A DNA stretch of 64,000 bases from Bacteroidota bacterium (GTDB taxonomy: Bacteria > Bacteroidota > Bacteroidia > Chitinophagales > Chitinophagaceae): NCBI GenBank assembly GCA_016706595.1, contig JADJJH010000007.1:140856-204855 (forward strand), in the 5' to 3' direction. The notes under the pieces were generated by a model that was not told where the DNA came from, ran no database searches, and was given only the letters and a program-made list of their open reading frames with translations. Of this stretch, positions 7,156-18,629 are shown piece by piece (within the stretch, counting starts at the first letter, position 1; each line of letters begins with the position of its first letter). A program made the translations under genes and the position numbers.

Positions 7156-10112
7156 GTGGTTACACGGAAAAAAACTTAGAAGAACATATTGAGAGAAGCT
7201 TACACGAAGTAGGTTACAAATCTCTTCTTCATACTGAGTATGATAGAGTGAATTGTATTGTTCAATCTGACCTCATTGAATTCATCAAAGACACTCAGAA
7301 AGATGTATATGATAAACTGGTAGAACAATATGGTCCCGAAACAGACACCAAACTCATTTTAAGACTGACCAATGAGATTTCAGGACGTGGGGTGATAGAT
7401 TGTCTAAGAAAGGGAATAAAAGACCGTGGCTGTCATTTTTCATTAGTTTATTTTGAACCCAAAAGCGGACTGAATCCTGAACATCAGGAACTCTATCAAA
7501 AGAACCGATTCACAGCCATCAGACAACTTCATTATTCTTCAAAAAATAATAACTCATTGGACATGGCTCTTTTCATAAATGGAATATTTATTGTAACCAT
7601 GGAGTTGAAAAATCAATTGACAGGGCAAACCATTATTGATAGTGAAAAACAATACCGATATGACAGAGACCCGAATGAACCTCTCTTTCAATTCAAAAGA
7701 GTGATAGTTCATTTTTGTTGTGATAATGACAAGGTTTCAATGACGACACGATTAATGGGAGGGAAGACAAAATTTCTTCCATATAACAAAGGGATAATCA
7801 ATCCGATTAATCTTACAGGATTAAAAACATCATATCTCTGGAAGGAGATATTGACAAAAGAAAGTATGTTGGATATACTTGAAAACTTTGTTCATGTTTC
7901 CATTGAGACTGATAAAGATTTTGACCCGAAACTGGGTAAGGTTATTGAGAAGAAAAAAGAACTTTTAGTTTTCCCTCGTTATCATCAGTTAGATGTAATC
8001 AGAAAACTCAGAACATCAGTGAGAACTGAAGGCGTTGGAAATAACTATCTGATTCAACATACAACAGGGTCCGGAAAAAGTTATTCAATTGGATGGTTAT
8101 CACATTTGCTGACCTCAATTTACAGAACCAAGGATGATAACAACCGAATGTTCGACAGTATCATAGTGATTACAGACCGTAAAGTTTTAGATAGGCAATT
8201 ACAAAACACTATCAAGCAACTGGAACAAACAACCGGGGTTGTGAATCCCGTTGATGAAAACTCATCTCAGTTAAAAAAACATTTAGAAAGTGGTAAGGAT
8301 ATCATCATTACGACCATTCAAAAATTCCCCCGTATTTCTGAAACAATTTCTCAATTACAAAGTAAAACATTTGGAATTATTATTGATGAAGTTCATTCTT
8401 CTCAAAGTGGTGAAGGGGCAAAACATTTGAAACAGTCACTTTCAAAAGGTGTGGAATATGATTATGAAGAGAATGAAGAGATTAGTGATATAGATGATTT
8501 CATTAGAGAAGAAATAAGAAGTAGAGGCAAACAAAAACATATTTCCTTTTTTGGGTTCAGTGGGACACCCAAAAATAAAACTTTGGAATTATTTGGTAGA
8601 AAAGATGATGAAGGACACTTTATTCCGTTTCATACATACACAATGAAGCAAAGTATTACTGAAGGTTTTACATTGGATGTATTAGAGACTTATACGACCT
8701 ATCAACAATGGTTTAAACTGAATAAGCGAGTAGAAGAAGATAAGGAGTTACCGAAGATGAAAGTAATGAAGCGGTTGATAAATTTTGTTGACGACCAGTC
8801 TCATACTATCACTCAGAAAGTAAAAATCATTTTAGACCATTTTATAAATCACACTTCAAAGAAATTGGGCGGTAAAGGAAGAGGAATGATTGTTGTTCGG
8901 TCCCGGCTTCATTGTGTGAGGTATAAAATGGAAATGGATAAACAAATGAAAGAGTTGGGACTTCCATATAGTAGTTTGGTTGCATTCAGTGGAAGTGTAT
9001 TTGATTTTGACACCTCAAATGAATACACTGAAAATTCGATGAATAAACTCTCACAAGGAGTTTCAATTCCTGATAGTTTCAAGGACCCGAAATATAGGCT
9101 TCTGATAGTTTCAAATAAATTTCAAACTGGGTATGATGAACCTTTACTTCATTCAATGTATGTAGATAAAACTCTGAGAGGATTACAATGTGTTCAAACT
9201 CTAAGTAGGTTAAACAGAACGACCACCGGAAAGACTGACACTTTTGTTTTGGATTTTGTAAATACCAGTGATGAAATTTTTGAAAGCTTTCAACCATACT
9301 ATCAAAAAACTATTCTGACAGGAGAAACCGACCCGAATAGACTTTATACAATTGAAACCGACATAAAGAAATTCAATCTATTCACCGAATATGAGATACA
9401 AGAATTTTGTGATGTCTTTTATGATAAGAACCAAGCGCAGGAACTTCTTCAACCAATATTGAATAGAGTGGTCCATAATTGGAGTCGAATTGAAGATGAA
9501 AATGAAAGGGAAAACTTTCGTTCTCTGATTCAATCCTATCTCAGACTATACGGATATATTTCACAGATAGTAACCTTTGAAGATATTGACTTAGAAAAAC
9601 TTTATGTTTTTCTAAGATACTTAAACAAGAAATTGCCAAGGAGAGAGAAAGAGAATATTGAAGACATTACTTCCTTAGTGGATTTAGATAGTTTCAGATT
9701 GGAAGAAACATTTAAAGGAAAAATTGCACTGGAAGAAAAAGACGGGGAATTTGAACCTCTTGGAAGTGGAGTCTCAAAAGTATTTGTTGAAGATGAACTT
9801 GATTCACTTACTCAAATTATTCTTAGAATAAATGAAATTTATGGTGACCAAATAACCGATGAAGACAAACTGGATTTAGAGAATATGAAGAAGAGAGTAA
9901 TGACAAACGAAGAACTTCAAAAAGTGATGACTGGTGATAACTCAGAAACCAATAAGCGACATAAATTTGAAGAAGTGATGACTACAATTCTTTTAAGTTA
10001 TGTAAATAACAGACTGGACTTTTATAATAAAATGGATGACCCGAAAATAAAGAACTTCATTGGTGATATTCTTTACTCAGAATTAAAAAATCAAAATCAA
10101 ATAAACCCTTAA
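7152..10112 (+). CDS. hsdR: Type I restriction endonuclease subunit HsdR
   Basis: 986 aa. N-terminal PD-(D/E)XK motif (DMALFINGIFIVTMELKN), SF2 helicase motif I (QHTTGSGKS) and motif II (IIIDEVHSSQ), and later helicase motifs (FQTGYDEP). Confidence 0.92.
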   Translation: MSGYTEKNLEEHIERSLHEVGYKSLLHTEYDRVNCIVQSDLIEFIKDTQKDVYDKLVEQYGPETDTKLILRLTNEISGRGVIDCLRKGIKDRGCHFSLVYFEPKSGLNPEHQELYQKNRFTAIRQLHYSSKNNNSLDMALFINGIFIVTMELKNQLTGQTIIDSEKQYRYDRDPNEPLFQFKRVIVHFCCDNDKVSMTTRLMGGKTKFLPYNKGIINPINLTGLKTSYLWKEILTKESMLDILENFVHVSIETDKDFDPKLGKVIEKKKELLVFPRYHQLDVIRKLRTSVRTEGVGNNYLIQHTTGSGKSYSIGWLSHLLTSIYRTKDDNNRMFDSIIVITDRKVLDRQLQNTIKQLEQTTGVVNPVDENSSQLKKHLESGKDIIITTIQKFPRISETISQLQSKTFGIIIDEVHSSQSGEGAKHLKQSLSKGVEYDYEENEEISDIDDFIREEIRSRGKQKHISFFGFSGTPKNKTLELFGRKDDEGHFIPFHTYTMKQSITEGFTLDVLETYTTYQQWFKLNKRVEEDKELPKMKVMKRLINFVDDQSHTITQKVKIILDHFINHTSKKLGGKGRGMIVVRSRLHCVRYKMEMDKQMKELGLPYSSLVAFSGSVFDFDTSNEYTENSMNKLSQGVSIPDSFKDPKYRLLIVSNKFQTGYDEPLLHSMYVDKTLRGLQCVQTLSRLNRTTTGKTDTFVLDFVNTSDEIFESFQPYYQKTILTGETDPNRLYTIETDIKKFNLFTEYEIQEFCDVFYDKNQAQELLQPILNRVVHNWSRIEDENERENFRSLIQSYLRLYGYISQIVTFEDIDLEKLYVFLRYLNKKLPRREKENIEDITSLVDLDSFRLEETFKGKIALEEKDGEFEPLGSGVSKVFVEDELDSLTQIILRINEIYGDQITDEDKLDLENMKKRVMTNEELQKVMTGDNSETNKRHKFEEVMTTILLSYVNNRLDFYNKMDDPKIKNFIGDILYSELKNQNQINP

Positions 10113-10122
10113 AATAAAAATC

Positions 10123-10647
10123 ATGGCAACAGAAAATACAACATGGAAAGAAAAATCAACTTGGGATAAATCAAAAGAGATACTTGGTATAATTGGCAAT
10201 TTGGCTTTTATCACAATGTTAATATTGAATTTGATAGCTTTAAAGAATCTTATGAAATCCAATAACTACAATAATGAAGTTGTTGGGAATTGTATGACTA
10301 AATATTCAAAAATCGCTTCAAATATCAGAGCGTATAATAATCATAAGGATTCTACAATTGACATAGTGAATACTATGTATGACTATTTCGACTTGACTAA
10401 TGAAGAATTATTTTACATCAGAAACGGTGTTGTTAATCCTGAAGTTAGTGGTGATTGGATAACTGGGATGATAAAGCAAATTAAGATTTTCAAAGAGGAT
10501 AAAAATTATAACACAGTAATTGAAAATTATCCTCGAATAAAGAAAACATTTCTTATTGAATGGTCAGAAATAAAACCTGATATGATAAGCAAGCAGGTAA
10601 TTCAAAATTGTATGAGAAATCTTAATGAATATAATTTGAATCAATAA
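10123..10647 (+). CDS. Hypothetical single-pass membrane protein (174 aa)
   Basis: Starts 10 nt after the hsdR stop. One clear TM helix (ILGIIGNLAFITMLILNLIAL). No recognisable catalytic motif. Confidence 0.5.
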   Translation: MATENTTWKEKSTWDKSKEILGIIGNLAFITMLILNLIALKNLMKSNNYNNEVVGNCMTKYSKIASNIRAYNNHKDSTIDIVNTMYDYFDLTNEELFYIRNGVVNPEVSGDWITGMIKQIKIFKEDKNYNTVIENYPRIKKTFLIEWSEIKPDMISKQVIQNCMRNLNEYNLNQ

Positions 10648-10668
10648 TAAAAATTATTTTGAATATAA

Positions 10669-11271
10669 ATGGAAGTCTATCATCAGTTTCATAATACAAA
10701 CAAATTTTATCCAACTTGGGAGGTGGATTATATCTTTTTGGGAACATTCAATCCAGTTTGTGGAGAGCAGTTAGATTATTATTATAGGCGAAAGAGTAAT
10801 GGATTTTGGAATATTTTAAAGGCTTATTTTGATCCCAATAATGAGTATAATATATTAACCTATATAGAACTTGAATCTTTTGTGAAGGCTAAGAAGATAG
10901 GTTGTATTGATGTCATAAAAAAGGTGACGTTCCCAGATGATATGAGAGACAAGATATGTGGTAAAGGTTATTCCGACCAAACACTTTTCACAGTGACTAA
11001 CTTTAAAAGAGAATACACCTTTGAAGAAATTAAAGAGTTTCTTATTAAAAGAAAAGTAGAAAAGGTTTTTTCAACATGGGGTAAAAGGGATAGCCCAAGT
11101 GAGTTTTTGAATGAAGTAAATAATTTTGTTACCTTTTGTGATGAAAATTCAATTTGCTTCACCCCTCTTCCTTCACCAAGTGGGAGATGTTACCGAGGAG
11201 TAAATATTCCTATTATTACCAATGAGTGGGGCAACAGGATTACAAATGATTTTTGTAAAAAACCACTCTAA
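10669..11271 (+). CDS. UDG-superfamily DNA glycosylase-like protein (MUG/TDG- or hypoxanthine-DNA-glycosylase-like)
   Basis: 200 aa. Motif 1 with Asn reads IFLGTFNPV (compare GINPG of MUG/TDG). It is followed by YYY....NGFWNIL (compare the HP.N.FW pattern). The C-terminal motif 2 reads PLPSPSGRC (compare LPNPSGLS). Assignment is by motif pattern only. Confidence 0.55.
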   Translation: MEVYHQFHNTNKFYPTWEVDYIFLGTFNPVCGEQLDYYYRRKSNGFWNILKAYFDPNNEYNILTYIELESFVKAKKIGCIDVIKKVTFPDDMRDKICGKGYSDQTLFTVTNFKREYTFEEIKEFLIKRKVEKVFSTWGKRDSPSEFLNEVNNFVTFCDENSICFTPLPSPSGRCYRGVNIPIITNEWGNRITNDFCKKPL

Positions 11272-11316
11272 ATACATCAAAAAACCAAAATTGAAATTAT
11301 CCTAAAAATAAAGAAT

Positions 11317-11637
11317 ATGAACCCAATTGAAATTGTCCAATTTCTAAAAAACAATTCTCTAACATTTTGGAATCTACTGAGTGAAATAGATGATGAAATA
11401 GTTTCTTCAATGAGTGAAAATGATAAGGATATTATGGAAAGAATTGGCGAGGTAGAAGAAGTTGAATCATCATTGGTGAATGGAGAAATAATAGTTCATT
11501 TCAAAAATTATGACTTTTATATTAAGGAAGATGAATTTGATGACGGGAATGGAGAGGACCCTTTTTATAAATATAGTTTAGTACATCAGACAGGTGAAAA
11601 GGTAATTCCTATTTTTGGAGTACAACAGAAATTGTAA
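11317..11637 (+). CDS. Small acidic protein (106 aa), paralogue of 12961..13308
   Basis: Rich in D/E. Shares ordered blocks with the 115-aa ORF: P.E/D-I/L..F...TFW/Y; RIGEVEEVE vs KIGEYKTLEE; IIVHFKNYDFYIKE vs TIIHFETLGFYIEE; VIPIFGVQQKL vs KIVFGNHQKL. Confidence 0.5.
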   Translation: MNPIEIVQFLKNNSLTFWNLLSEIDDEIVSSMSENDKDIMERIGEVEEVESSLVNGEIIVHFKNYDFYIKEDEFDDGNGEDPFYKYSLVHQTGEKVIPIFGVQQKL

Positions 11638-11658
11638 TAATCAAACACGGCAATAAGA

Positions 11659-12390
11659 GTGAACTTGCTTAAAATTGGAACAATCAATATTGACTGGCTA
11701 AGAAGGAAAAACAAAATTCTACAGATGCTTATTGATGAAATCAACAGGCAAGAATTCGATTTTTTAATAGTTACTGAGAATGTTGCCTCATTCCAGTTCA
11801 ATGAAAAATATTTTGTATCCAACACAATCCCCATTCCTGTAGACACGGAATTTCAACATTTAGACTATGGTAGTTATTTGAAAGGTGAAACGCCAATAAG
11901 ATGCTCCATTTTTAGTAAATATGAACCAATTGAAATACTCTCTGTAATAGACTCTTATACTTGTATCGCCAGAAAGTATTTAGTTGAAAATATAGAGCTA
12001 ATTATTTACGCCTCTATTATTGGGACCTATGGCATAAGCCATCAAATGGAAATTGCCAAGCCAGAACTTTGCAATTTCAAAACTGATATTGCAAACATAT
12101 TAATTCAAAATAAAAATTTAATTATTGCAGGAGATTTAAACACATCATTTTTTACCGAGGAGAGAAAACAGTTGACACAAATTCAAAGCAGATTCGAATT
12201 AATAAATTTTACAAACAAATACCACATCAACCGAGCTACAGAAAAAATGAAAGATTGCATTGATCATATCTTTTTTTCGGAGAAATTAAATGAGGGCGCA
12301 ATCCTTAGCACAGACACATTTTTCTCGAACAATCAACTAAAAGATGAACCACATAAAGGAATTATTGTAACCATAAATAATTACATTTGA
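11659..12390 (+). CDS. Endonuclease/exonuclease/phosphatase (EEP; ExoIII/DNase I-like) family protein
   Basis: 243 aa with a GTG start in the track. EEP motifs appear in order: KIGTINIDW, DFLIVTEN (catalytic Glu), IIAGDLNTSF (GDxN) and CIDHIFFS (IDHI). Confidence 0.65.
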   Translation: MNLLKIGTINIDWLRRKNKILQMLIDEINRQEFDFLIVTENVASFQFNEKYFVSNTIPIPVDTEFQHLDYGSYLKGETPIRCSIFSKYEPIEILSVIDSYTCIARKYLVENIELIIYASIIGTYGISHQMEIAKPELCNFKTDIANILIQNKNLIIAGDLNTSFFTEERKQLTQIQSRFELINFTNKYHINRATEKMKDCIDHIFFSEKLNEGAILSTDTFFSNNQLKDEPHKGIIVTINNYI

Positions 12391-12393
12391 TGT

Positions 12394-12885
12394 ATGGAGA
12401 GGTATCAAAAAATATTAGATGAAATAATTATTTCAGTAAAAGATTTCAATTTGTATTTAAAAGAGGACAATCAAATTGAATTGCCTTTTGAAAATTTACT
12501 AAATAACCCTTACTATTATTTAGAACTTAAAAACATTCCCTTTAAAGGTTTCCAAATTCCCAGGGCTTGCGAGTATGGAGGCGTTTATTTTTATTTCGGG
12601 TTCAATAAAAATGATATTTCCGAATTACATATTTATGTCGGAAAGGCTTCTCAAAATAGTACTATGGGGAAAAGGTTATATTCACATTTCTACCAAAGAT
12701 TTTCACAAACAAATTTTGAGGGGCATAATTATTATTTTAACAATGATATTCTAATTGAAGGAATGTTATTATTACCAATTGAAAATAATGAACATAAATT
12801 TCTTGCACCGTCAATGGAAGAATTTATTATCACCGACATGAAAGAGAAAAATTATTTACTGATAAATAAAGTGGGTAATTCTTAA
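12394..12885 (+). CDS. GIY-YIG-like nuclease domain protein
   Basis: 163 aa, starting 3 nt after the EEP stop. Reads GGVYFYFG-x10-HIYVGKAS...GKRLYSH (GIY...YIG...R), with a later acidic SMEEFII and NKVGN. The pattern is consistent with a GIY-YIG core. Motif-level call only. Confidence 0.5.
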   Translation: MERYQKILDEIIISVKDFNLYLKEDNQIELPFENLLNNPYYYLELKNIPFKGFQIPRACEYGGVYFYFGFNKNDISELHIYVGKASQNSTMGKRLYSHFYQRFSQTNFEGHNYYFNNDILIEGMLLLPIENNEHKFLAPSMEEFIITDMKEKNYLLINKVGNS

Positions 12886-12960
12886 AAGAGGTCTTCGTAA
12901 AAGGGAATCAAAAACAACAATAAAGGACTTGTAAGAAAAGAGTATTCTAATTTTAAAAAA

Positions 12961-13308
12961 ATGAAAACACCACAGGATTTAATGAATTTTATGACAAAGT
13001 ATAAATATACTTTTTATGATTTTGAAAATGATATTGACTGGAAATTAGAAGAAAGCGGAGATGTTGATACTGAAGGGAATGAATTATATCATAAAATTGG
13101 AGAGTATAAGACTTTAGAAGAGTATGAATTAAATGAGGTGCATGGTTGTTCAATAAAGCATACAATAATTCATTTTGAAACATTAGGATTTTATATTGAA
13201 GAACGACTCCATATAGAAAATGAAGATGTTCAAAAAAAGGAATATTTTATAGTTGAGCCAGTACAAAAGATTGTTTTCGGAAATCATCAGAAATTGAGTG
13301 TCAATTAA
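12961..13308 (+). CDS. Small acidic protein (115 aa), paralogue of 11317..11637
   Basis: See 11317..11637: same block order, roughly 30% identity by eye. Confidence 0.5.
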   Translation: MKTPQDLMNFMTKYKYTFYDFENDIDWKLEESGDVDTEGNELYHKIGEYKTLEEYELNEVHGCSIKHTIIHFETLGFYIEERLHIENEDVQKKEYFIVEPVQKIVFGNHQKLSVN

Positions 13309-13392
13309 ATGCTTGTGTCTCAGAGTGTCTATCACAGGGTCTTTGTCAGGTTATTGAATGAAGAATTCTCCATCTATGGAAGTATCATTAAG

Positions 13393-13589
13393 TTAGAATA
13401 AGGCTCTGACTACATTCTAAAAAAACTTAAAAAATATTTTTTGATTTCATTGACTTTGAATATTTCCAAATTTGTTTTTAAAGTCTTCTGATTTATATTT
13501 GTATAACAAAAGAGATAAGAGTTCAGATGACACCGAACCACCTTATTCTAAAGAAATTAGAAAGGTCAGAGTTAAATAGGTTAGAATAA
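13393..13589. promoter_or_regulatory. Cluster of four TTAGAAT half-sites forming two palindromes plus an 11-bp inverted repeat pair
   Basis: TTAGAATAAGG at 13393-13403 and its exact reverse complement CCTTATTCTAA at 13541-13551 lie 137 bp apart. ATTCTAA at 13414-13420 pairs with the first copy. TTAGAATAA at 13581-13589 pairs with 13543-13551. Confidence 0.5.
13471..13501 (+). promoter_or_regulatory. Bacteroidota-type promoter (TTTG -33 / TAnnTTTG -7)
   Basis: TTTG at 13471-13474, a 19-nt spacer, then TATATTTG at 13494-13501. It points toward the 13767 ORF. The region is AT-rich, so a chance occurrence is possible. Confidence 0.35.
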
Positions 13590-13766
13590 AATCGCCTATT
13601 CACTATCTCAAAAAGATAGTTGTCAATTATCAATAATTATATTGTTTCAGGTTATTTCTGAAATCCATGTTTGACTTTAAATCGAATTCTGATTTTATCA
13701 GTGGTAAGAATTATGGAGCAAACTGAATATTTGATGAATTATGTAATACACTAAAAATTAAAATAT

Positions 13767-14057
13767 ATGAACGAACAATTAGAAAAATTTATTGATTTCT
13801 TGGCGAAATTATCGGATGACGAACTAAGTAAGCTTATGTATATAATTTCCCGGTCAGGGCGGTTAATAATTCCAAACTATTATTTTAAAGACCACGTAGA
13901 AGAATTTGTAGAAGATAAAATTTCTATTCAAGAAATGTGTTGGATTCAAAAAAGTATTGAAAATTATGATTACTATTTTGATAGCGACATTATACAACTA
14001 CATACAGAATATAAGCCGCAAAGAAGAGCGGATATACTCGAAGACTTAAGGTTATAG
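13767..14057 (+). CDS. Hypothetical small acidic protein (96 aa)
   Basis: ATG ORF in a co-directional series. No recognisable motif. Confidence 0.4.
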   Translation: MNEQLEKFIDFLAKLSDDELSKLMYIISRSGRLIIPNYYFKDHVEEFVEDKISIQEMCWIQKSIENYDYYFDSDIIQLHTEYKPQRRADILEDLRL

Positions 14058-14098
14058 CAGAAAGGACAAAGTATTATTAAAAAATAAAATAAATAACT

Positions 14099-14593
14099 AT
14101 GAGAAAAACACGATTGAGCCCTTTTTATCAGGGACCAGAATGGTTGAATGGAACATCTTCTATCAACCTATTAAAAAACAGGATTGGGAAATCTGTCAAT
14201 GGATTTCAAACCTTAAAAACAGGAGTCATTTCAACTAAAAGAGCAACCCGTTATAACGGAGTTTCTTTGAAACTACAAGTAGTGAATGACCTTGTTTATT
14301 TGAAGGTTGGGAAATCACTTTCAGATCCATACTGGAAGATTGATAACATTGTTAAGATGTTATCATTCAAGAACGCTTCAAAGACGATTCTTAAACAGGA
14401 TGTTAGAAAGTGGATTGAGGATGGAAAACTGGTTGTCAGTTTTAATGTTCTCAAAAAAGACCACGGAACGAAGTGGAAATTAATTGACAAGGACACTTTA
14501 TTCAAATCCGCAGAACTCAAACCAAGGGTTAAGTGGGAAAGAACCAAAAAGGAGGTTCTTTTGGATGAGGACGATTTCTTTAGTGACCTGTAA
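14099..14593 (+). CDS. Hypothetical basic protein (164 aa)
   Basis: ATG ORF, K/R-rich, followed by a strong terminator hairpin. Confidence 0.45.
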   Translation: MRKTRLSPFYQGPEWLNGTSSINLLKNRIGKSVNGFQTLKTGVISTKRATRYNGVSLKLQVVNDLVYLKVGKSLSDPYWKIDNIVKMLSFKNASKTILKQDVRKWIEDGKLVVSFNVLKKDHGTKWKLIDKDTLFKSAELKPRVKWERTKKEVLLDEDDFFSDL

Positions 14594-14602
14594 TCAGGCA
14601 TT

Positions 14603-14636
14603 ATTAGCCTCTGAATTTATCAGGGGCTAATTTTTC
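14603..14636 (+). terminator. Rho-independent terminator
   Basis: 12-bp stem (ATTAGCCTCTGA / TCAGGGGCTAAT, one G:U pair), 5-nt loop, then TTTTT. Confidence 0.6.
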
Positions 14637-14740
14637 TTAAAAAGTGTATCATTTCAAAAATGTATCAAAATAATTAGGAAAACATTAGGTTGATACACGA
14701 TTTAATGTATCTTTGTAATGTAAAAGATTAAAACGATACA

Positions 14741-14995
14741 ATGAAAGACTATTTAAGACGATTATTAGATGAAAAGGGAATATCACAGGATTATGTATTC
14801 ACACTTGATACGAATGATTACTGGGGGCATCATATCATTCCCATAGAAGTTCTGATCGAGTTTATAGATAATATGAACCCACAAACTCAGACACAGATAA
14901 AACAGAAATTAGTGGTCATTGATTTTAAGAATGGTGATATTCTTCACTTTTTAGAATTCATCACCCGTAAAATGATAGAAGTTCAAGTCAATTAA
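14741..14995 (+). CDS. Hypothetical protein (84 aa)
   Basis: ATG ORF ending 10 nt before the recombinase start. No recognisable motif. Confidence 0.4.
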   Translation: MKDYLRRLLDEKGISQDYVFTLDTNDYWGHHIIPIEVLIEFIDNMNPQTQTQIKQKLVVIDFKNGDILHFLEFITRKMIEVQVN

Positions 14996-15005
14996 AATAC
15001 ACATT

Positions 15006-15631
15006 ATGAAAGTTGTAATTTTTCCCGCGTGTCCACTATGTCGCAAGACTATCAAAGACAAACAGTAGAATTAAAAGAATATTCTCAGAAGATGGGTTTT
15101 GAAGTTGTCAAAACCTTTGAAGAAAAGATTTCAGGCGGTAAGAACAATGAAGACCGACCAAAATTGATGGAAATGATAAATTTCATCAAGTCAAATCAGA
15201 TTGACAAAGTTCTATGTTGGGAATTAAGCAGAATTGGAAGGAATACTATTGAGGTTCTGAAAACAATCAAGCTTCTGAATGATAATTGTATATCACTATT
15301 CATCAAGAACTACAACATAGAGACCTTGAATGATAAATGTGAGATAAACCCCTTATCTCAGTTTATGATTCAAATTTTGACCTCTGTAAGTGAGATGGAG
15401 AAGACAACTATCAGACAGAGGGTAAAGTCGGGTTATGATAATTTCAGAAAGAACGGTGGCAAGGTTGGAAGAAAAGAAGGATTCAGAAAAGACGATGAAA
15501 CTATACTTAATGAAAACAAGGATGTTTCAAAACTTCTAAAACAAGGCTACTCAGTAAGAAAGGTTATGAAATTGACCGATAAAAGTAGTGGGACCATTCA
15601 GAAAGTAAAGAAATTAATCAATGACAAATAA
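15006..15631 (+). CDS. Small serine recombinase (resolvase/invertase family); first 7 codons are out of frame
   Basis: Contains RVSTMSQDYQRQ (catalytic Ser motif), ISGG...DRPKL, ELSRIGRN, and a C-terminal HTH (GYSVRKVMKLTDKSSGTIQKVKK). ATG at 15006 encodes MKVVIF in another frame. One extra T in the T5 run 15019-15023 would give MKVVIFSRVSTMSQ. The track ORF is 15029..15631 (GTG). Confidence 0.8.
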
Positions 15632-16021
15632 GAAAATGACAATTACTATTCAACATCAAGCAGAAAAGACCTTTCACACTTTCAAAGTAAAAGATTCGGA
15701 TAACCTTACTTACTTAGAGGTAAGAACTATCTGTAATAAAATGAATTTCATTGGGCTTCTCGTGAATGGGAAATATTATAAATTTAAATAAGCTGAATTA
15801 TGGACTTAAAAACGAAATACGATACTAAGAGCAAGGAGATTGAACAAAAACTCTCAAAAATGAAAGTAATAAACAAGAAGCACAAACAACACTTTGAGAA
15901 GAACTCCACTAACTGGTGATCCTTGATGGAAGTTCATTCAAATTAATACTTTTTTGATTTGCCATCAAAAACCAAAGTTGAATAAAATAATATTATTACC
16001 TTCATAATAAAATCTAACCCC

Positions 16022-16474
16022 ATGAAACAATTATTGACATTGATCTTTATATTTACTTTAATCTCAGTTATATTTATAAAATGCAAAAAGAATGAATCTG
16101 GGAATAAGAGTTATTCAAACCTTACTGGAACTTATCAAGGCAGTTTGATTTGGTCTAAAGGATTATTACAAGGAACTGACAACAATGCAAAAGTTACAAT
16201 TTCTTCAGGAATCAATGGTAGTATAAATGTCAATATATCTACTTCAGCTTCAGTTCCTAAAAGTTATGATATACCTCTTATGCTAAAAATTGAAAATTCT
16301 GGAAGTAGAGTCCGGTCGTATGGTTATGAATACAATAATTCAACTTTTACCAAAGGAATTGGTGCTACAATAAATATTTACAATGATGGTAATCCCTCAG
16401 ACCTTGAAATAAATTATGAGGACATTGATATTAATCCAATTGTACAGTATAATTTTTCCGGAAGTATTAAATGA
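16022..16474 (+). CDS. Putative lipoprotein (150 aa)
   Basis: Signal peptide with a Cys after the hydrophobic core (LISVIFIKC). S/N/G-rich mature part. Confidence 0.5.
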   Translation: MKQLLTLIFIFTLISVIFIKCKKNESGNKSYSNLTGTYQGSLIWSKGLLQGTDNNAKVTISSGINGSINVNISTSASVPKSYDIPLMLKIENSGSRVRSYGYEYNNSTFTKGIGATINIYNDGNPSDLEINYEDIDINPIVQYNFSGSIK

Positions 16475-16526
16475 AGAACAATATGAAGAAATTCTAAAAT
16501 ATTTGTGTACGTTAAAGTAACTTCCG

Positions 16527-16583
16527 GACCTAATCTATTTAGAAGACAAACTGGATGAAATGATAAATTTCACGGGGATGTAA
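16527..16583 (+). repeat. Gene 3'-end remnant, copy 1 (DLIYLEDKLDEMINFTGM*)
   Basis: 57 nt, homologous to 18412-18468. An in-frame stop lies just upstream (16518-16520), so no intact gene is attached. Confidence 0.7.
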
Positions 16584-17009
16584 TTAAGTAAGAATTCGTT
16601 TCATAAATACAGAAACATCACCATAAACCCCATTTATAATTGAAAAAATTGAATGACTTACGTCAAACTCCTTTCCCAATTTACTTGTCCAAATACCATT
16701 TAATAATTGCCTAGCAGCGTGAGTAGGAGCCCCATTTTTTGAAAAAATTGCAATTTTTTCATATCCTTCTTCTAGTTCTCCATTTTCACATACTTCATAA
16801 TTTATAGTACTAAAAAGCTGAATAAAATTTTCAACTTTTTCAGATCTCGGAATATGTTCCGGCCAATAGTACGAATTACTGCTATCAGGCCAAAACCATT
16901 TTGAGTCGTCACCATAAGCCCATGCAATACAATTATAGAACGGAGTAGGCGGACTTGTAATAATGAATGGTTCTTTTGCAGAGTTGGGGAAAATATTATG
17001 AAAATGCAT
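16584..17009 (-). CDS. Hypothetical protein with papain-like Cys/His signature (141 aa)
   Basis: FYNCIAWAY (Cys in an N-C-x-x-W context, as in CHAP/NlpC-type folds) and a later GAPTHAARQLLNGIWTSKLG (His). Last gene of a tightly packed three-gene unit. Confidence 0.45.
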   Translation of the reverse strand: MHFHNIFPNSAKEPFIITSPPTPFYNCIAWAYGDDSKWFWPDSSNSYYWPEHIPRSEKVENFIQLFSTINYEVCENGELEEGYEKIAIFSKNGAPTHAARQLLNGIWTSKLGKEFDVSHSIFSIINGVYGDVSVFMKRILT

Positions 17010-17015
17010 TCTTCA

Positions 17016-17444
17016 TTATTTCAGATTATCATTTGCCCATTCAAGCCAATCAGCTTTCATTAATTTGAAATCTCCTCGATGGTCAGGCTTAATGGGATTC
17101 TTACCAGTAAGCGCTTCAAGGGCATAAAACCAGTGTGAATCAGATTTTTCTAAATCCTGAAGAATAAATGGCAACACATCTTGACCTAAATGGACAATTG
17201 AACGGTAAGCACCATTATTTGTTATTTCTGAAACACTAGATGAGAACATAGTTTCAGATTGCCAAATGCTTTTGTATATTTCAAATTTCTTCTTCACTTG
17301 GTATTTGAACATTTCCTTTATAAAAATACTTTGACCGATAAAGGAATGCCGACTTTCTTCATTGTTTCTTTGTACAAAAATTGCTTCAGTTGAAACAGCA
17401 TTTGTTCTTAAATTTTCTTGAACTCTTGGGAATAAGTAATTCAT
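17016..17444 (-). CDS. Hypothetical protein (~142 aa)
   Basis: The likely start is the ATG at 17444, which overlaps the upstream stop (ATGA). Ends 6 nt before the next ATG. No recognisable motif. Confidence 0.45.
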   Translation of the reverse strand: MNYLFPRVQENLRTNAVSTEAIFVQRNNEESRHSFIGQSIFIKEMFKYQVKKKFEIYKSIWQSETMFSSSVSEITNNGAYRSIVHLGQDVLPFILQDLEKSDSHWFYALEALTGKNPIKPDHRGDFKLMKADWLEWANDNLK

Positions 17445-18172
17445 TTTAAAAATAAATCTTTTGTTTTTTGAGTGATACAACTTTCGAAAATTTTATCTTT
17501 TGTAGTTCTAATTTCATTAAAATTAGAAGTTATTTCATCAATTGTAGAACCAATGTTGGTGTTTTGTGATACATCAATATCAAGAATGAATGGAATTTTC
17601 GAATCTTGAATCGGTTCAATTGCTTCAGAAATTACCGCATTCTGTCCATTCTCATCACATGGGACTTGAATTTGCATAAAGAATGTAGAATAAATTTGAG
17701 GGAGACAAGATGGAATCGGGGGCATAATAGTTATATAATCTTGGAAACTAGTTAAAGTGATTGGAAGTTCAATTCTATTAATAAAACGTGCCGCAATCCT
17801 GTTAGCCGTTGAAGGAGCAAATAAGTCCTTATAATGAGACCACAATTTCATAAAAAATGTAAAATGTTCTTCCCAACTGTTATAAGGTTTTAAAATATTT
17901 AATGTTAGCCCTTCAAATCCAACTTGAATTTGTCTAGAGGCATCATCACTCGAATAGATATGTCCCAAGACATCACTTGTCCCTTTACTTGCGACTTCTT
18001 TGTCGGGTTGAAATTCAAACAGCCCAGTAAATCTATGTTGTGTTTTCTGATTAGGAAACTCCCCAATTATCAACTCTTTAAACGCATTCAATTCTTCTAT
18101 CTGAGTAACAGCTAACGGCTCAACTCTGATATCGAATACTGCTTCGCGAATGGGATTGTTCGTGTAGTTCAT
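17441..18172 (-). CDS. TIGR04255-like uncharacterised protein (~243 aa)
   Basis: The N-terminus MNYTNNPIREAVFDIRVEP matches, from memory, the characteristic start of the TIGR04255 family. The track start at 18190 is TTG; the ATG at 18172 is preferred. Confidence 0.45.
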   Translation of the reverse strand: MNYTNNPIREAVFDIRVEPLAVTQIEELNAFKELIIGEFPNQKTQHRFTGLFEFQPDKEVASKGTSDVLGHIYSSDDASRQIQVGFEGLTLNILKPYNSWEEHFTFFMKLWSHYKDLFAPSTANRIAARFINRIELPITLTSFQDYITIMPPIPSCLPQIYSTFFMQIQVPCDENGQNAVISEAIEPIQDSKIPFILDIDVSQNTNIGSTIDEITSNFNEIRTTKDKIFESCITQKTKDLFLK

Positions 18173-18411
18173 TATTTTTAAAAAGGGCAAGAAAAGTATA
18201 ACCTTATTATGTTGTCCTTGGACAAATCTACATAAAGTTTTTAATCTTCATAATTTCAATGGATTGAAAAGGTTTTATTTCACATTCAATCCTTCAGTAA
18301 AGGCAATATTTAAAAGAATTTAAAATCACCTTTATATATGATAGAATAGAAATAATTTCAAAAAACATACAGTACTTAGATAGAACTCTATTTATTATCG
18401 GTTATCTAGTA

Positions 18412-18468: not shown

Positions 18469-18556
18469 TAAAATGTTTCACACATTTGTTTTACACCCTA
18501 CAAAGAAAAAGACTCGCAATTCATTGATAATCAATGTTTTGCGAGTCTTTTATCTG

Positions 18557-18629
18557 TGGTGTGGGAGGGAATTGAACCCCCGACACAAGGATTTTCAGTC
18601 CTTTGCTCTACCAACTGAGCTACCGCACC
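18557..18629 (-). tRNA. tRNA-Phe (anticodon GAA)
   Basis: The reverse complement folds as a cloverleaf: GGTGCGG-TA-GCTC-AGTTGGTA-GAGC-A-AAGGA-CTGAAAA-TCCTT-GTGTC-GGGGG-TTCAATT-CCCTC-CCACACC-A. 73 nt, CCA not encoded. One C5:A68 mismatch in the acceptor stem. Confidence 0.85.

Follow-up and report, generated by a model that had tools for sequence, protein, structure and literature searches.

The DNA considered here is a 64,000-nucleotide (nt) stretch of contig JADJJH010000007.1 (positions 140,856 to 204,855 of the forward strand, assembly GCA_016706595.1), referred to below as the window, from the metagenome-assembled genome (MAG) of a member of the Bacteroidota. It contains a type I restriction-modification (R-M) locus whose restriction subunit gene hsdR (7152-10112, + strand; 986 amino acids (aa), with Pfam HSDR_N, ResIII, SWI2_SNF2 and T1R_D3-like domains) is followed by six open reading frames (ORFs) at positions 10123-13308. 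ORF1 (10123-10647, 174 aa) has one predicted N-terminal transmembrane segment. ORF2 (10669-11271, 200 aa) is a candidate glycosylase of the uracil-DNA glycosylase (UDG) superfamily, divergent in sequence and with a MUG-like fold, as judged from AlphaFold, Foldseek and motifs. ORF3 (11317-11637, 106 aa) and ORF6 (12961-13308, 115 aa) are acidic orphans and paralogues of each other. ORF4 (11659-12390, 243 aa, GTG start) encodes an EEP-superfamily metal-dependent phosphoesterase and ORF5 (12394-12885, 163 aa) a protein with a GIY-YIG nuclease domain, and these are genes 1 and 2 of a cassette. The six genes had been proposed in an earlier note on this DNA to form one undescribed defence system. 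The comparison with related loci points elsewhere: the block probably consists of cargo genes that were acquired independently of one another and now stand in a row at the 3' end of a disrupted type I R-M locus in a low-GC island.

The gene layout agrees exactly with the one first described, with all six genes on the + strand and gaps of 10, 21, 45, 21, 3 and 75 nt from hsdR through ORF6. The annotation (locus tags IPI46_12335-12360) labels every protein except ORF4 as 'hypothetical'. The NCBI calls of ORF4 and ORF5 (221 and 144 aa) start too late, as alignments with homologues favour 243 and 163 aa, and the shorter ORF4 call loses the invariant catalytic Asn10. No intrinsic-terminator-like site occurs within 10123-13308, and sigma-70-like promoter matches in the block are at chance level, in a scan that does not extend to Bacteroidota promoters; co-transcription of the six genes is possible. 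When the six proteins and those of neighbouring genes were scanned against Pfam, NCBIfam, PHROGs and PADLOC-DB v2 (2023), ORF1, ORF3 and ORF6 matched no family, while ORF4 and ORF2 gave weak matches, to EEP and to TIGR04274, respectively. The only PADLOC-DB match among the six is a weak one of ORF5 to PDC-S14 (E = 0.005) over the GIY-YIG motif, in line with the earlier opinion that the combination is no named defence system. Scans of viral contigs were negative for the ORF1, ORF2, ORF3/6, ORF4 and ORF5 families.

Conservation of gene order in other genomes had been named beforehand as a check on the single-system proposal, and the genes are not syntenic elsewhere. In 8 contexts of the ORF2 family, 42 of the EEP family (ORF4) and 40 of the ORF5 family the glycosylase is never accompanied by one of its five partners from the block, and only ORF4 and ORF5 recur together, in one other element. 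A single six-gene system is therefore not supported. The enzymatic logic of the proposal, in which a glycosylase is paired with an apurinic/apyrimidinic (AP) endonuclease, fares no better: the glycosylase and EEP genes are unlinked in the contexts compared, so the cutting of AP sites by this pair is without comparative support. By contrast, profile and structure searches, the check named for the domain calls, support all three enzyme folds.

ORF2 is probably a divergent UDG-superfamily glycosylase with a MUG-like fold, a placement that leans on structure prediction. Its AlphaFold model, built on the family alignment, has a pLDDT of 87 and a pTM of 0.86 and displays the alpha/beta architecture with a central parallel sheet that is characteristic of the UDG superfamily. 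In a Foldseek search of the PDB, the top three matches of the model are all Escherichia coli MUG (E = 5e-4 to 3e-3, probability 1.0, TM-score 0.50/0.61); matches beyond MUG are unrelated, with E above 1e-2, and no Brig-like entry is found among the PDB fold matches. Three segments are invariant in the family alignment, G25-T-F-N28-P29, N44-x-F46-W47 and S169-P-S-G-R173. In the model the first of these follows the strand formed by residues 21-25 and the last the strand formed by residues 163-166, which is where UDG motifs 1 and 2 are expected, the one behind the first core strand and the other behind the last, and the motif residues are presumably catalytic. MUG/TDG and TIGR04274/2l3f share this arrangement of an Asn-Pro motif 1 after strand 1, an N-x-F-W helix and a P-S-G motif 2 after the last strand. 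At the level of the fold, the original MUG/TDG-like call stands. ORF2 differs from MUG in its length, which is greater by about 35 residues, and in additional invariant positions occupied by Cys, Gly and Asp (ICGxGYxD).

The ORF2 family consists of 17 clusters at 90% identity, all of them uncharacterised, one of which carries the JGI label G:T/U glycosylase. ORF2 itself has no Pfam match. Its match to TIGR04274, the NCBIfam hypoxanthine-DNA glycosylase (HDG) family, covers the N-terminal half only (E = 9e-4, 19.4 bits with a cutoff of 80), and there is a weak match to PDB 2l3f (E = 0.039).

Eight genomic contexts of this family were examined besides the window (P0002, P0004, P0006, P0008, P0009, P0010, P0012 and P0014). 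On a 12.2-kb contig of JGI sample 3300059473 (P0006), an intact integrase-hsdM-hsdS-hsdR locus is followed, 11 nt downstream of hsdR, by a 55% identical homologue, which takes the same position as ORF2 in the window except that ORF1 is missing. Glycosylases of the ORF2 family may thus land repeatedly at the tail of type I R-M operons. In P0014 (L087 590-7612, and also L088) the homologue is placed between a 1454-aa AAA_16 (STAND-like) protein and a tyrosine integrase. The AAA_16 gene comes first in a co-directional string, followed by four small unknown ORFs and, as the last gene, the ORF2 homologue (44% identity), with an HTH_17 gene adjacent; no gene of the L087/L088 string has a PADLOC match, and the string may represent an uncharacterised defence island. 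P0002 is an island with integrase, methyltransferase and resolvase genes. The remaining contexts are a Mucilaginibacter locus in which the homologue follows a TacA/GNAT pair among housekeeping genes (P0004), a housekeeping neighbourhood with a UvrA paralogue nearby (P0008), a position beside RNase Y and ZapA (P0012) and two short contigs with neighbours of no known identity (P0009, P0010). In the contexts available as DNA, tblastn searches with the other window ORFs were negative throughout, and in P0006 and P0009, which are represented by gene calls only, no called neighbour has an EEP or GIY-YIG domain. Altogether, four of the nine contexts are clearly linked to mobile elements or defence and one more adjoins a toxin-antitoxin pair, and the homologues repeatedly stand at the end of co-directional gene strings in islands with integrase, R-M or STAND genes. 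In this patchy, island-borne distribution ORF2 differs from core repair genes such as MUG and family-6 HDG.

Type I R-M operons are known to have PrrC-type and other accessory genes nested in them or appended to them. The window genes resemble such appended genes in being co-directional with hsdR and only a few nt away from it, and the P0006 homologue, 11 nt after its hsdR, repeats this placement. Unlike the accessory genes, the ORF2 family is linked to R-M genes in only two of the nine contexts, and the methylase gene of the window is disrupted.

The attack of glycosylases on modified phage bases has been described since 2024, as the work of single genes (Brig1, Brig2 and Brig3). Brig1 excises alpha-glucosyl-hydroxymethylcytosine and leaves abasic sites, with no need for a partner nuclease (PMC11078745). 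Brig2 acts on modified thymidines and has homologues, including some in Bacteroidota, near mobile elements and in A/T-rich regions (bioRxiv 10.1101/2025.10.29.685425), and 5-hydroxymethylcytosine is excised by Brig3 (PMC13160076). These single-gene UDG-superfamily glycosylases protect against phages with modified bases and reside in defence islands, mobile elements and A/T-rich regions (PMC11078745, bioRxiv 10.1101/2025.10.29.685425, PMC13160076). ORF2 shares with them the small single-domain UDG-superfamily fold, the annotation as 'hypothetical', the setting in A/T-rich mobile or defence islands near R-M, integrase and toxin-antitoxin genes, and, in most contexts, the presence as a lone, self-sufficient gene. 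The comparison with Brig2 and Brig3 is drawn from their descriptions, not from sequence, and ORF2 is not a homologue of Brig1, as the sequence relationship between the two is undetectable: the hhalign probability is 0.1%, with a Brig1 sequence that was machine-read from the supplement PDF of the paper and may contain small errors. The closest solved folds differ as well, being E. coli MUG for ORF2 and the Sulfolobus tokodaii uracil DNA glycosylase for Brig1 (PMC11078745).

By analogy with these enzymes, an attack on modified bases is a reasonable reading for ORF2 alone. As a stand-alone glycosylase it would most likely act like the Brig-type anti-phage enzymes, flipping a non-canonical base, modified or deaminated, out of invading DNA and excising it, and the abasic sites would then block replication or be cut by host AP endonucleases. 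ORF2 is probably a new, sequence-distinct member of the known class of UDG-superfamily island glycosylases. If the family is anti-phage, the Brig-type defence glycosylases would gain a clade that is distinct in sequence and restricted to Bacteroidota, and ORF2 would be a candidate for a new modified-base specificity, which would be useful in the mapping and editing of modified bases.

The assignment of ORF4 to the EEP superfamily had been narrowed in the earlier note to the ExoIII/AP-endonuclease fold, and it is the broader part of this claim that the searches support. ORF4 matches Pfam PF03372 (Exo_endo_phos) at E = 5e-5 with 23.6 bits, just below the cutoff of 24.5. Its homologues form at least 91 clusters, the majority of which carry PF03372, and the EEP catalytic set N10, E40, D159, N161, D202 and H203 is invariant in 25 sequences of the family. 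The N, E, D-x-N and D-H signature shared by the members of the superfamily (ExoIII/APE1, DNase I, CdtB, sphingomyelinases and inositol phosphatases among them) is therefore intact. By sequence, ORF4 and its relatives cannot be placed in the ExoIII/APE1 branch: the family profile has no match at E <= 1 among the PDB sequences, those of solved EEP structures included, and TIGR00195 (exodeoxyribonuclease III) is weakly touched by only two of the 25 family members (E = 0.008). Neither an AP-endonuclease subfamily nor a DNA substrate can be asserted for ORF4.

For ORF5 the recognition of relatives depends on the search method, as a word-indexed search returned ORF5 alone (1 match) and an exhaustive search 98 representatives, mostly full length at about 160 aa. 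ORF5 alone has no Pfam match, and the GIY-YIG assignment, which had been made before from the motif and is accepted here, is made at the level of the family. Pfam GIY-YIG (PF01541) is matched by 25 of 69 family members (best E = 2.8e-5) and GIY_YIG_2 by four; in the PDB the only meaningful matches of the family profile are to the N-terminal GIY-YIG domain of UvrC, over GVY...YIGKA...RL (E = 0.046). Residues Y65, Y81, G83, K84, R94, H98, E142 and N158 are conserved, and this GVY...YVGKA...R...H...E...N pattern is that of GIY-YIG nucleases of the UvrC, I-TevI and Slx1/YhbQ-like types. The spacing of these residues is presumably similar to that of the catalytic set of I-TevI. Unlike other GIY-YIG nucleases, ORF5 has its catalytic domain in the C-terminal two thirds, behind a family-specific region of about 55 residues, it has no recognisable DNA-binding domain, and its Tyr-Tyr spacer is longer, at 16 residues.

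ORF4 and ORF5 are the only genes of the block for which a joint history can be traced. The 42 EEP-family loci (37 from a genome-wide scan and five from contig look-ups) contain no ORF1, ORF2, ORF3 or ORF6, and ORF5 is present in L005 and L006 only, which are one element in two samples. In L005, an EEP gene whose product is 74% identical to ORF4 is followed after 9 nt by an ORF5 homologue of equal length with 47% protein identity. Positions 11666-12887 of the window align with 6002-7223 of L005 over about 1.2 kb at 71% nucleotide identity (blastn). The start of ORF4 and the stop of ORF5 are the exact limits of the homology, and the flanking genes are wholly different; such sharp edges imply a discrete two-gene cassette in unrelated surroundings, and this EEP/GIY-YIG cassette is an undescribed two-nuclease pair. 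In the 40 metagenomic loci of the ORF5 family, an EEP neighbour occurs only in the L005 contig, and no gene is consistently adjacent. Since each family is mostly found alone, neither ORF4 nor ORF5 strictly needs the other.

The closest EEP relatives, with over 50% identity, have neighbours of their own. A DUF6943 gene is found about 950 bp upstream (L005 5041-5463, L007 5055-5486, and L010, L016 and L019), and a gene for an unknown protein of 249-267 aa lies downstream on the opposite strand (L005 8438-9241, L007 6798-7547, and L011 and L016). A 249-aa ORF of the window (17441-18190) was considered as the counterpart of the latter and rejected, and neither this gene nor DUF6943 is present in the window. 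The EEP group of L007 is located about 4.5 kb downstream of another type I hsdR, which is followed by a HATPase_c/DUF4325 pair. The Chitinophagaceae MAG chromosome OY970254.1 (L012, L014) encodes two EEP paralogues far apart from each other, with 54% and 54% identity to ORF4, and one of the copies (also L009) is near a DUF6443 protein of more than 2500 aa, taken as RHS-type. More distant EEP relatives have a conserved chromosomal neighbourhood in Chryseobacterium.

The three remaining genes are orphans. ORF1 has a single strongly hydrophobic segment at residues 20-38 (mean Kyte-Doolittle value 2.32), and this one hydropathy peak is consistent with the single-pass transmembrane protein predicted before. 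ORF3 and ORF6, with isoelectric points of 4.2 and 4.8, are 31% identical end to end (BLASTP E = 2e-6), and in a shuffle test their score was reached by none of 2000 shuffles (z = 9), so that they are indeed the acidic paralogues they had been taken for and derive from a local duplication. The AlphaFold model of ORF3 (pLDDT 72) consists of four short helices and, behind them, a sheet of five strands, and has no significant match in the PDB or BFVD. Ugi- or SAUGI-like DNA mimics and known immunity folds were considered for ORF3 and ORF6 and rejected, as a model of this confidence matches nothing of the kind in either database. ORF1, ORF3 and ORF6 are singleton clusters at 90% identity. No relative of the three was found in viral contigs or in 92 related loci (849 kb), and tblastn searches with ORF3 and ORF6 against phage genomes and plasmids were negative. 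A likeness between residues 57-72 of ORF3 (EIIVHFKNYDFYIKED; 11485-11532) and residues 10-25 of ORF5 (IIISVKDFNLYLKEDN; 12421-12468) is probably due to chance, with a whole-protein shuffle z of 2.9.

The reading of the block as independently acquired cargo is the one these observations favour. ORF2 would be its stand-alone glycosylase, ORF4-ORF5 a discrete cassette that was transferred in one piece on at least one occasion and would act as a nuclease effector pair, and ORF1, ORF3 and ORF6 lineage-restricted orphans. What the data show directly is the gene layout, the folds and motifs, the lack of synteny, the cassette limits and the island setting; any defence role of these genes, their substrates and a possible co-transcription with hsdR are inferred. 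Several points weigh against this interpretation or parts of it. The tight spacing and the lack of terminators fit a single transcript, and a layout of this kind is compatible with a functional combination assembled locally. The pairing of ORF4 with ORF5 is known from only two independent elements. Two of the ORF2-family contexts resemble housekeeping neighbourhoods. The UDG call rests on a predicted structure with a moderate TM-score (0.5-0.6) together with the motifs; the Pfam UDG family (PF03167) is matched by none of 16 family members at E <= 0.1, and hhalign of the family profile gives a probability of 1% with E. coli MUG, aligning only the NxFW helix (the MUG query having been confirmed against PDB 1mtl_A, E = 4e-112), besides the negligible value for Brig1. 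The orphan label of ORF1, ORF3 and ORF6 is provisional, as it depends on singleton 90% clusters and on the phage, plasmid, viral and 849-kb searches.

The alternatives differ in how much of the block they treat as one machine. As a single undescribed defence system, the glycosylase would remove a modified base, the EEP and/or GIY-YIG enzymes would cut the abasic site, and the transmembrane and acidic proteins would sense, regulate or inhibit. This would account for the tight co-directional spacing without an internal terminator, it has three confirmed enzyme folds to draw on, and it suits an island setting beside an R-M operon in which no named system is matched. Yet ORF2 is never found with the other five genes in the 8 + 42 + 40 contexts, the ORF4-ORF5 cassette has sharp boundaries of its own, the EEP family cannot be placed with the ExoIII/APE1 AP endonucleases and known defence glycosylases need no dedicated nuclease (PMC11078745), and we regard such a system as very unlikely. 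Much the same small chance is given to a new local combination behind hsdR, in which a Brig-like glycosylase of an unrecognised UDG clade, the EEP/GIY-YIG cassette and acidic regulators would make up a working base-excision restriction module. Here the glycosylase would mark modified phage DNA that gets past type I restriction, the nucleases of the cassette would turn the abasic sites into breaks, and the acidic paralogues would restrain each enzyme block until infection; the combination would be too young or too rare for synteny to be seen in current databases. A toxin-immunity or toxin-antitoxin arrangement is improbable too. In it, ORF2 and ORF4/ORF5 would be toxins and ORF3 and ORF6 DNA-mimic-like inhibitors or immunity proteins, comparable to the action of Ugi or SAUGI on UDG. 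An acidic paralogue does follow each enzyme block, acidic DNA mimics that inhibit UDG exist, SAUGI being one (PMC3902945), and one ORF2 homologue adjoins the TacA/GNAT toxin-antitoxin pair. Against this, homologues of ORF2, ORF4 and ORF5 occur elsewhere with no ORF3/ORF6-like partner, which implies that toxicity is not obligatory for these enzymes, known inhibitor and immunity folds find no match in the ORF3 model, and the enzymes have no secretion or toxin-delivery domains in Pfam.

Accessory base-excision repair is somewhat less improbable than these, though still unlikely for the block. ORF2 would serve as a back-up for deaminated bases (uracil, hypoxanthine and xanthine, as MUG and family-6 HDG do), the EEP protein would be its AP endonuclease and the island a mere carrier. 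For ORF2 itself a repair role is conceivable, because the proteins closest to it in fold and profile work in repair (MUG and, weakly, TIGR04274 and PDB 2l3f) and because two contexts of the family, one of them near a UvrA paralogue, look like housekeeping surroundings; the weak TIGR00195 matches of two of 25 EEP members point in the same direction. The small size (17 clusters) and very patchy distribution of the ORF2 family, the low-GC, mobile nature of the region, the lack of linkage between the glycosylase and EEP genes and the fact that all matches to repair families are far below cutoffs speak against a repair module. At the other extreme, the genes might be functionless hitch-hikers in a decaying island, drifting or selfish ORFs; ORF5, for instance, might be a GIY-YIG endonuclease of the free-standing, homing type. 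This would be in keeping with the split hsdM, with the orphan status of ORF1, ORF3 and ORF6 and with the lack of consistent neighbours in the 40 ORF5-family loci, as would be expected of free-standing mobile genes. It is the explanation to which we attach the least probability, as ORF2, ORF4 and ORF5 are full length and keep all family-invariant catalytic residues, and the ORF4-ORF5 pair is intact in both elements at 71% nucleotide identity. Under the favoured reading of the block as a cargo string, the units to consider would be ORF2 alone and ORF4-ORF5 alone, and treating all six genes as one 'system' would be misdirected. The locus thus shows how tight spacing and a suggestive domain logic in one genome failed to predict a conserved system.

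The island around the block has itself been rearranged. The methylase gene is split by a decayed insertion sequence of the IS110 family, whose transposase (3090-4080, - strand) persists as fragments of 142, 129 and 54 aa, with Pfam Transposase_20 and DEDD_Tnp_IS110 on separate fragments; an intact 325-aa transposase from L014 matches it in three pieces (tblastn). The N-terminal part of hsdM (1847-3040, + strand) matches Pfam HsdM_N (E = 1e-23) and N6_Mtase (E = 5e-52, positions 4-229 of 311). A probable C-terminal remnant (4430-4891, + strand), identified by its translation, position and length, has no Pfam match. The two parts measure 397 and 153 aa, compared with 568 aa for the intact HsdM of the P0006 contig, and because of this split the R-M system of the window is probably inactive. 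The specificity subunit gene hsdS (5785-7155, + strand) matches Pfam Methylase_S in two stretches (E = 4e-27). Directly upstream of hsdM is an ORF for a Cas4-like PD-(D/E)XK nuclease of 561 aa (100-1785; PADLOC Cas4 models E = 4e-6, Pfam PDDEXK_1 E = 0.01). The six genes had been described as fused to the tail of the type I R-M operon, which is accurate as to position, but the island is a rearranged mosaic. The island setting beside R-M genes was correctly recognised, being marked by these genes, the IS110 remnants, a resolvase and a tRNA-Phe boundary.

This boundary is given by a tRNA-Phe gene (18556-18629, - strand; ARAGORN) at the right-hand end of the low-GC island. The GC content steps at about 18.5 kb from 0.313 on the left of the tRNA gene to 0.377 on its right, where RecQ, SerRS and other housekeeping genes start at once. 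As tRNA-Phe is situated exactly at this step, a genomic island of at least 18.5 kb appears to have integrated at the 3' end of the tRNA gene. A search of the window for a repeat of the tRNA-Phe 3' end found none, which places the other boundary of the island outside it.

Between the six genes and this boundary, ORF6 is followed by a non-coding stretch of 458 nt (13309-13766) with several short direct repeats and a perfect inverted repeat of 11 nt (TTAGAATAAGG, at 13393-13403 and 13541-13551). The stretch may mark where two cargo modules meet or serve as a site for a recombinase; Rfam had no match in 9800-16100. Further along, a serine recombinase of the resolvase type (15029-15631, + strand; Pfam Resolvase E = 8e-30) is a marker of mobile elements. 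The rest of this region encodes a putative lipoprotein (16022-16474), a DUF7689 protein (16584-17009, - strand) and, within 13767-17009, small unknown ORFs of 96, 164 and 84 aa, the 84-aa one corresponding to phrog_6004 (E = 5e-17).

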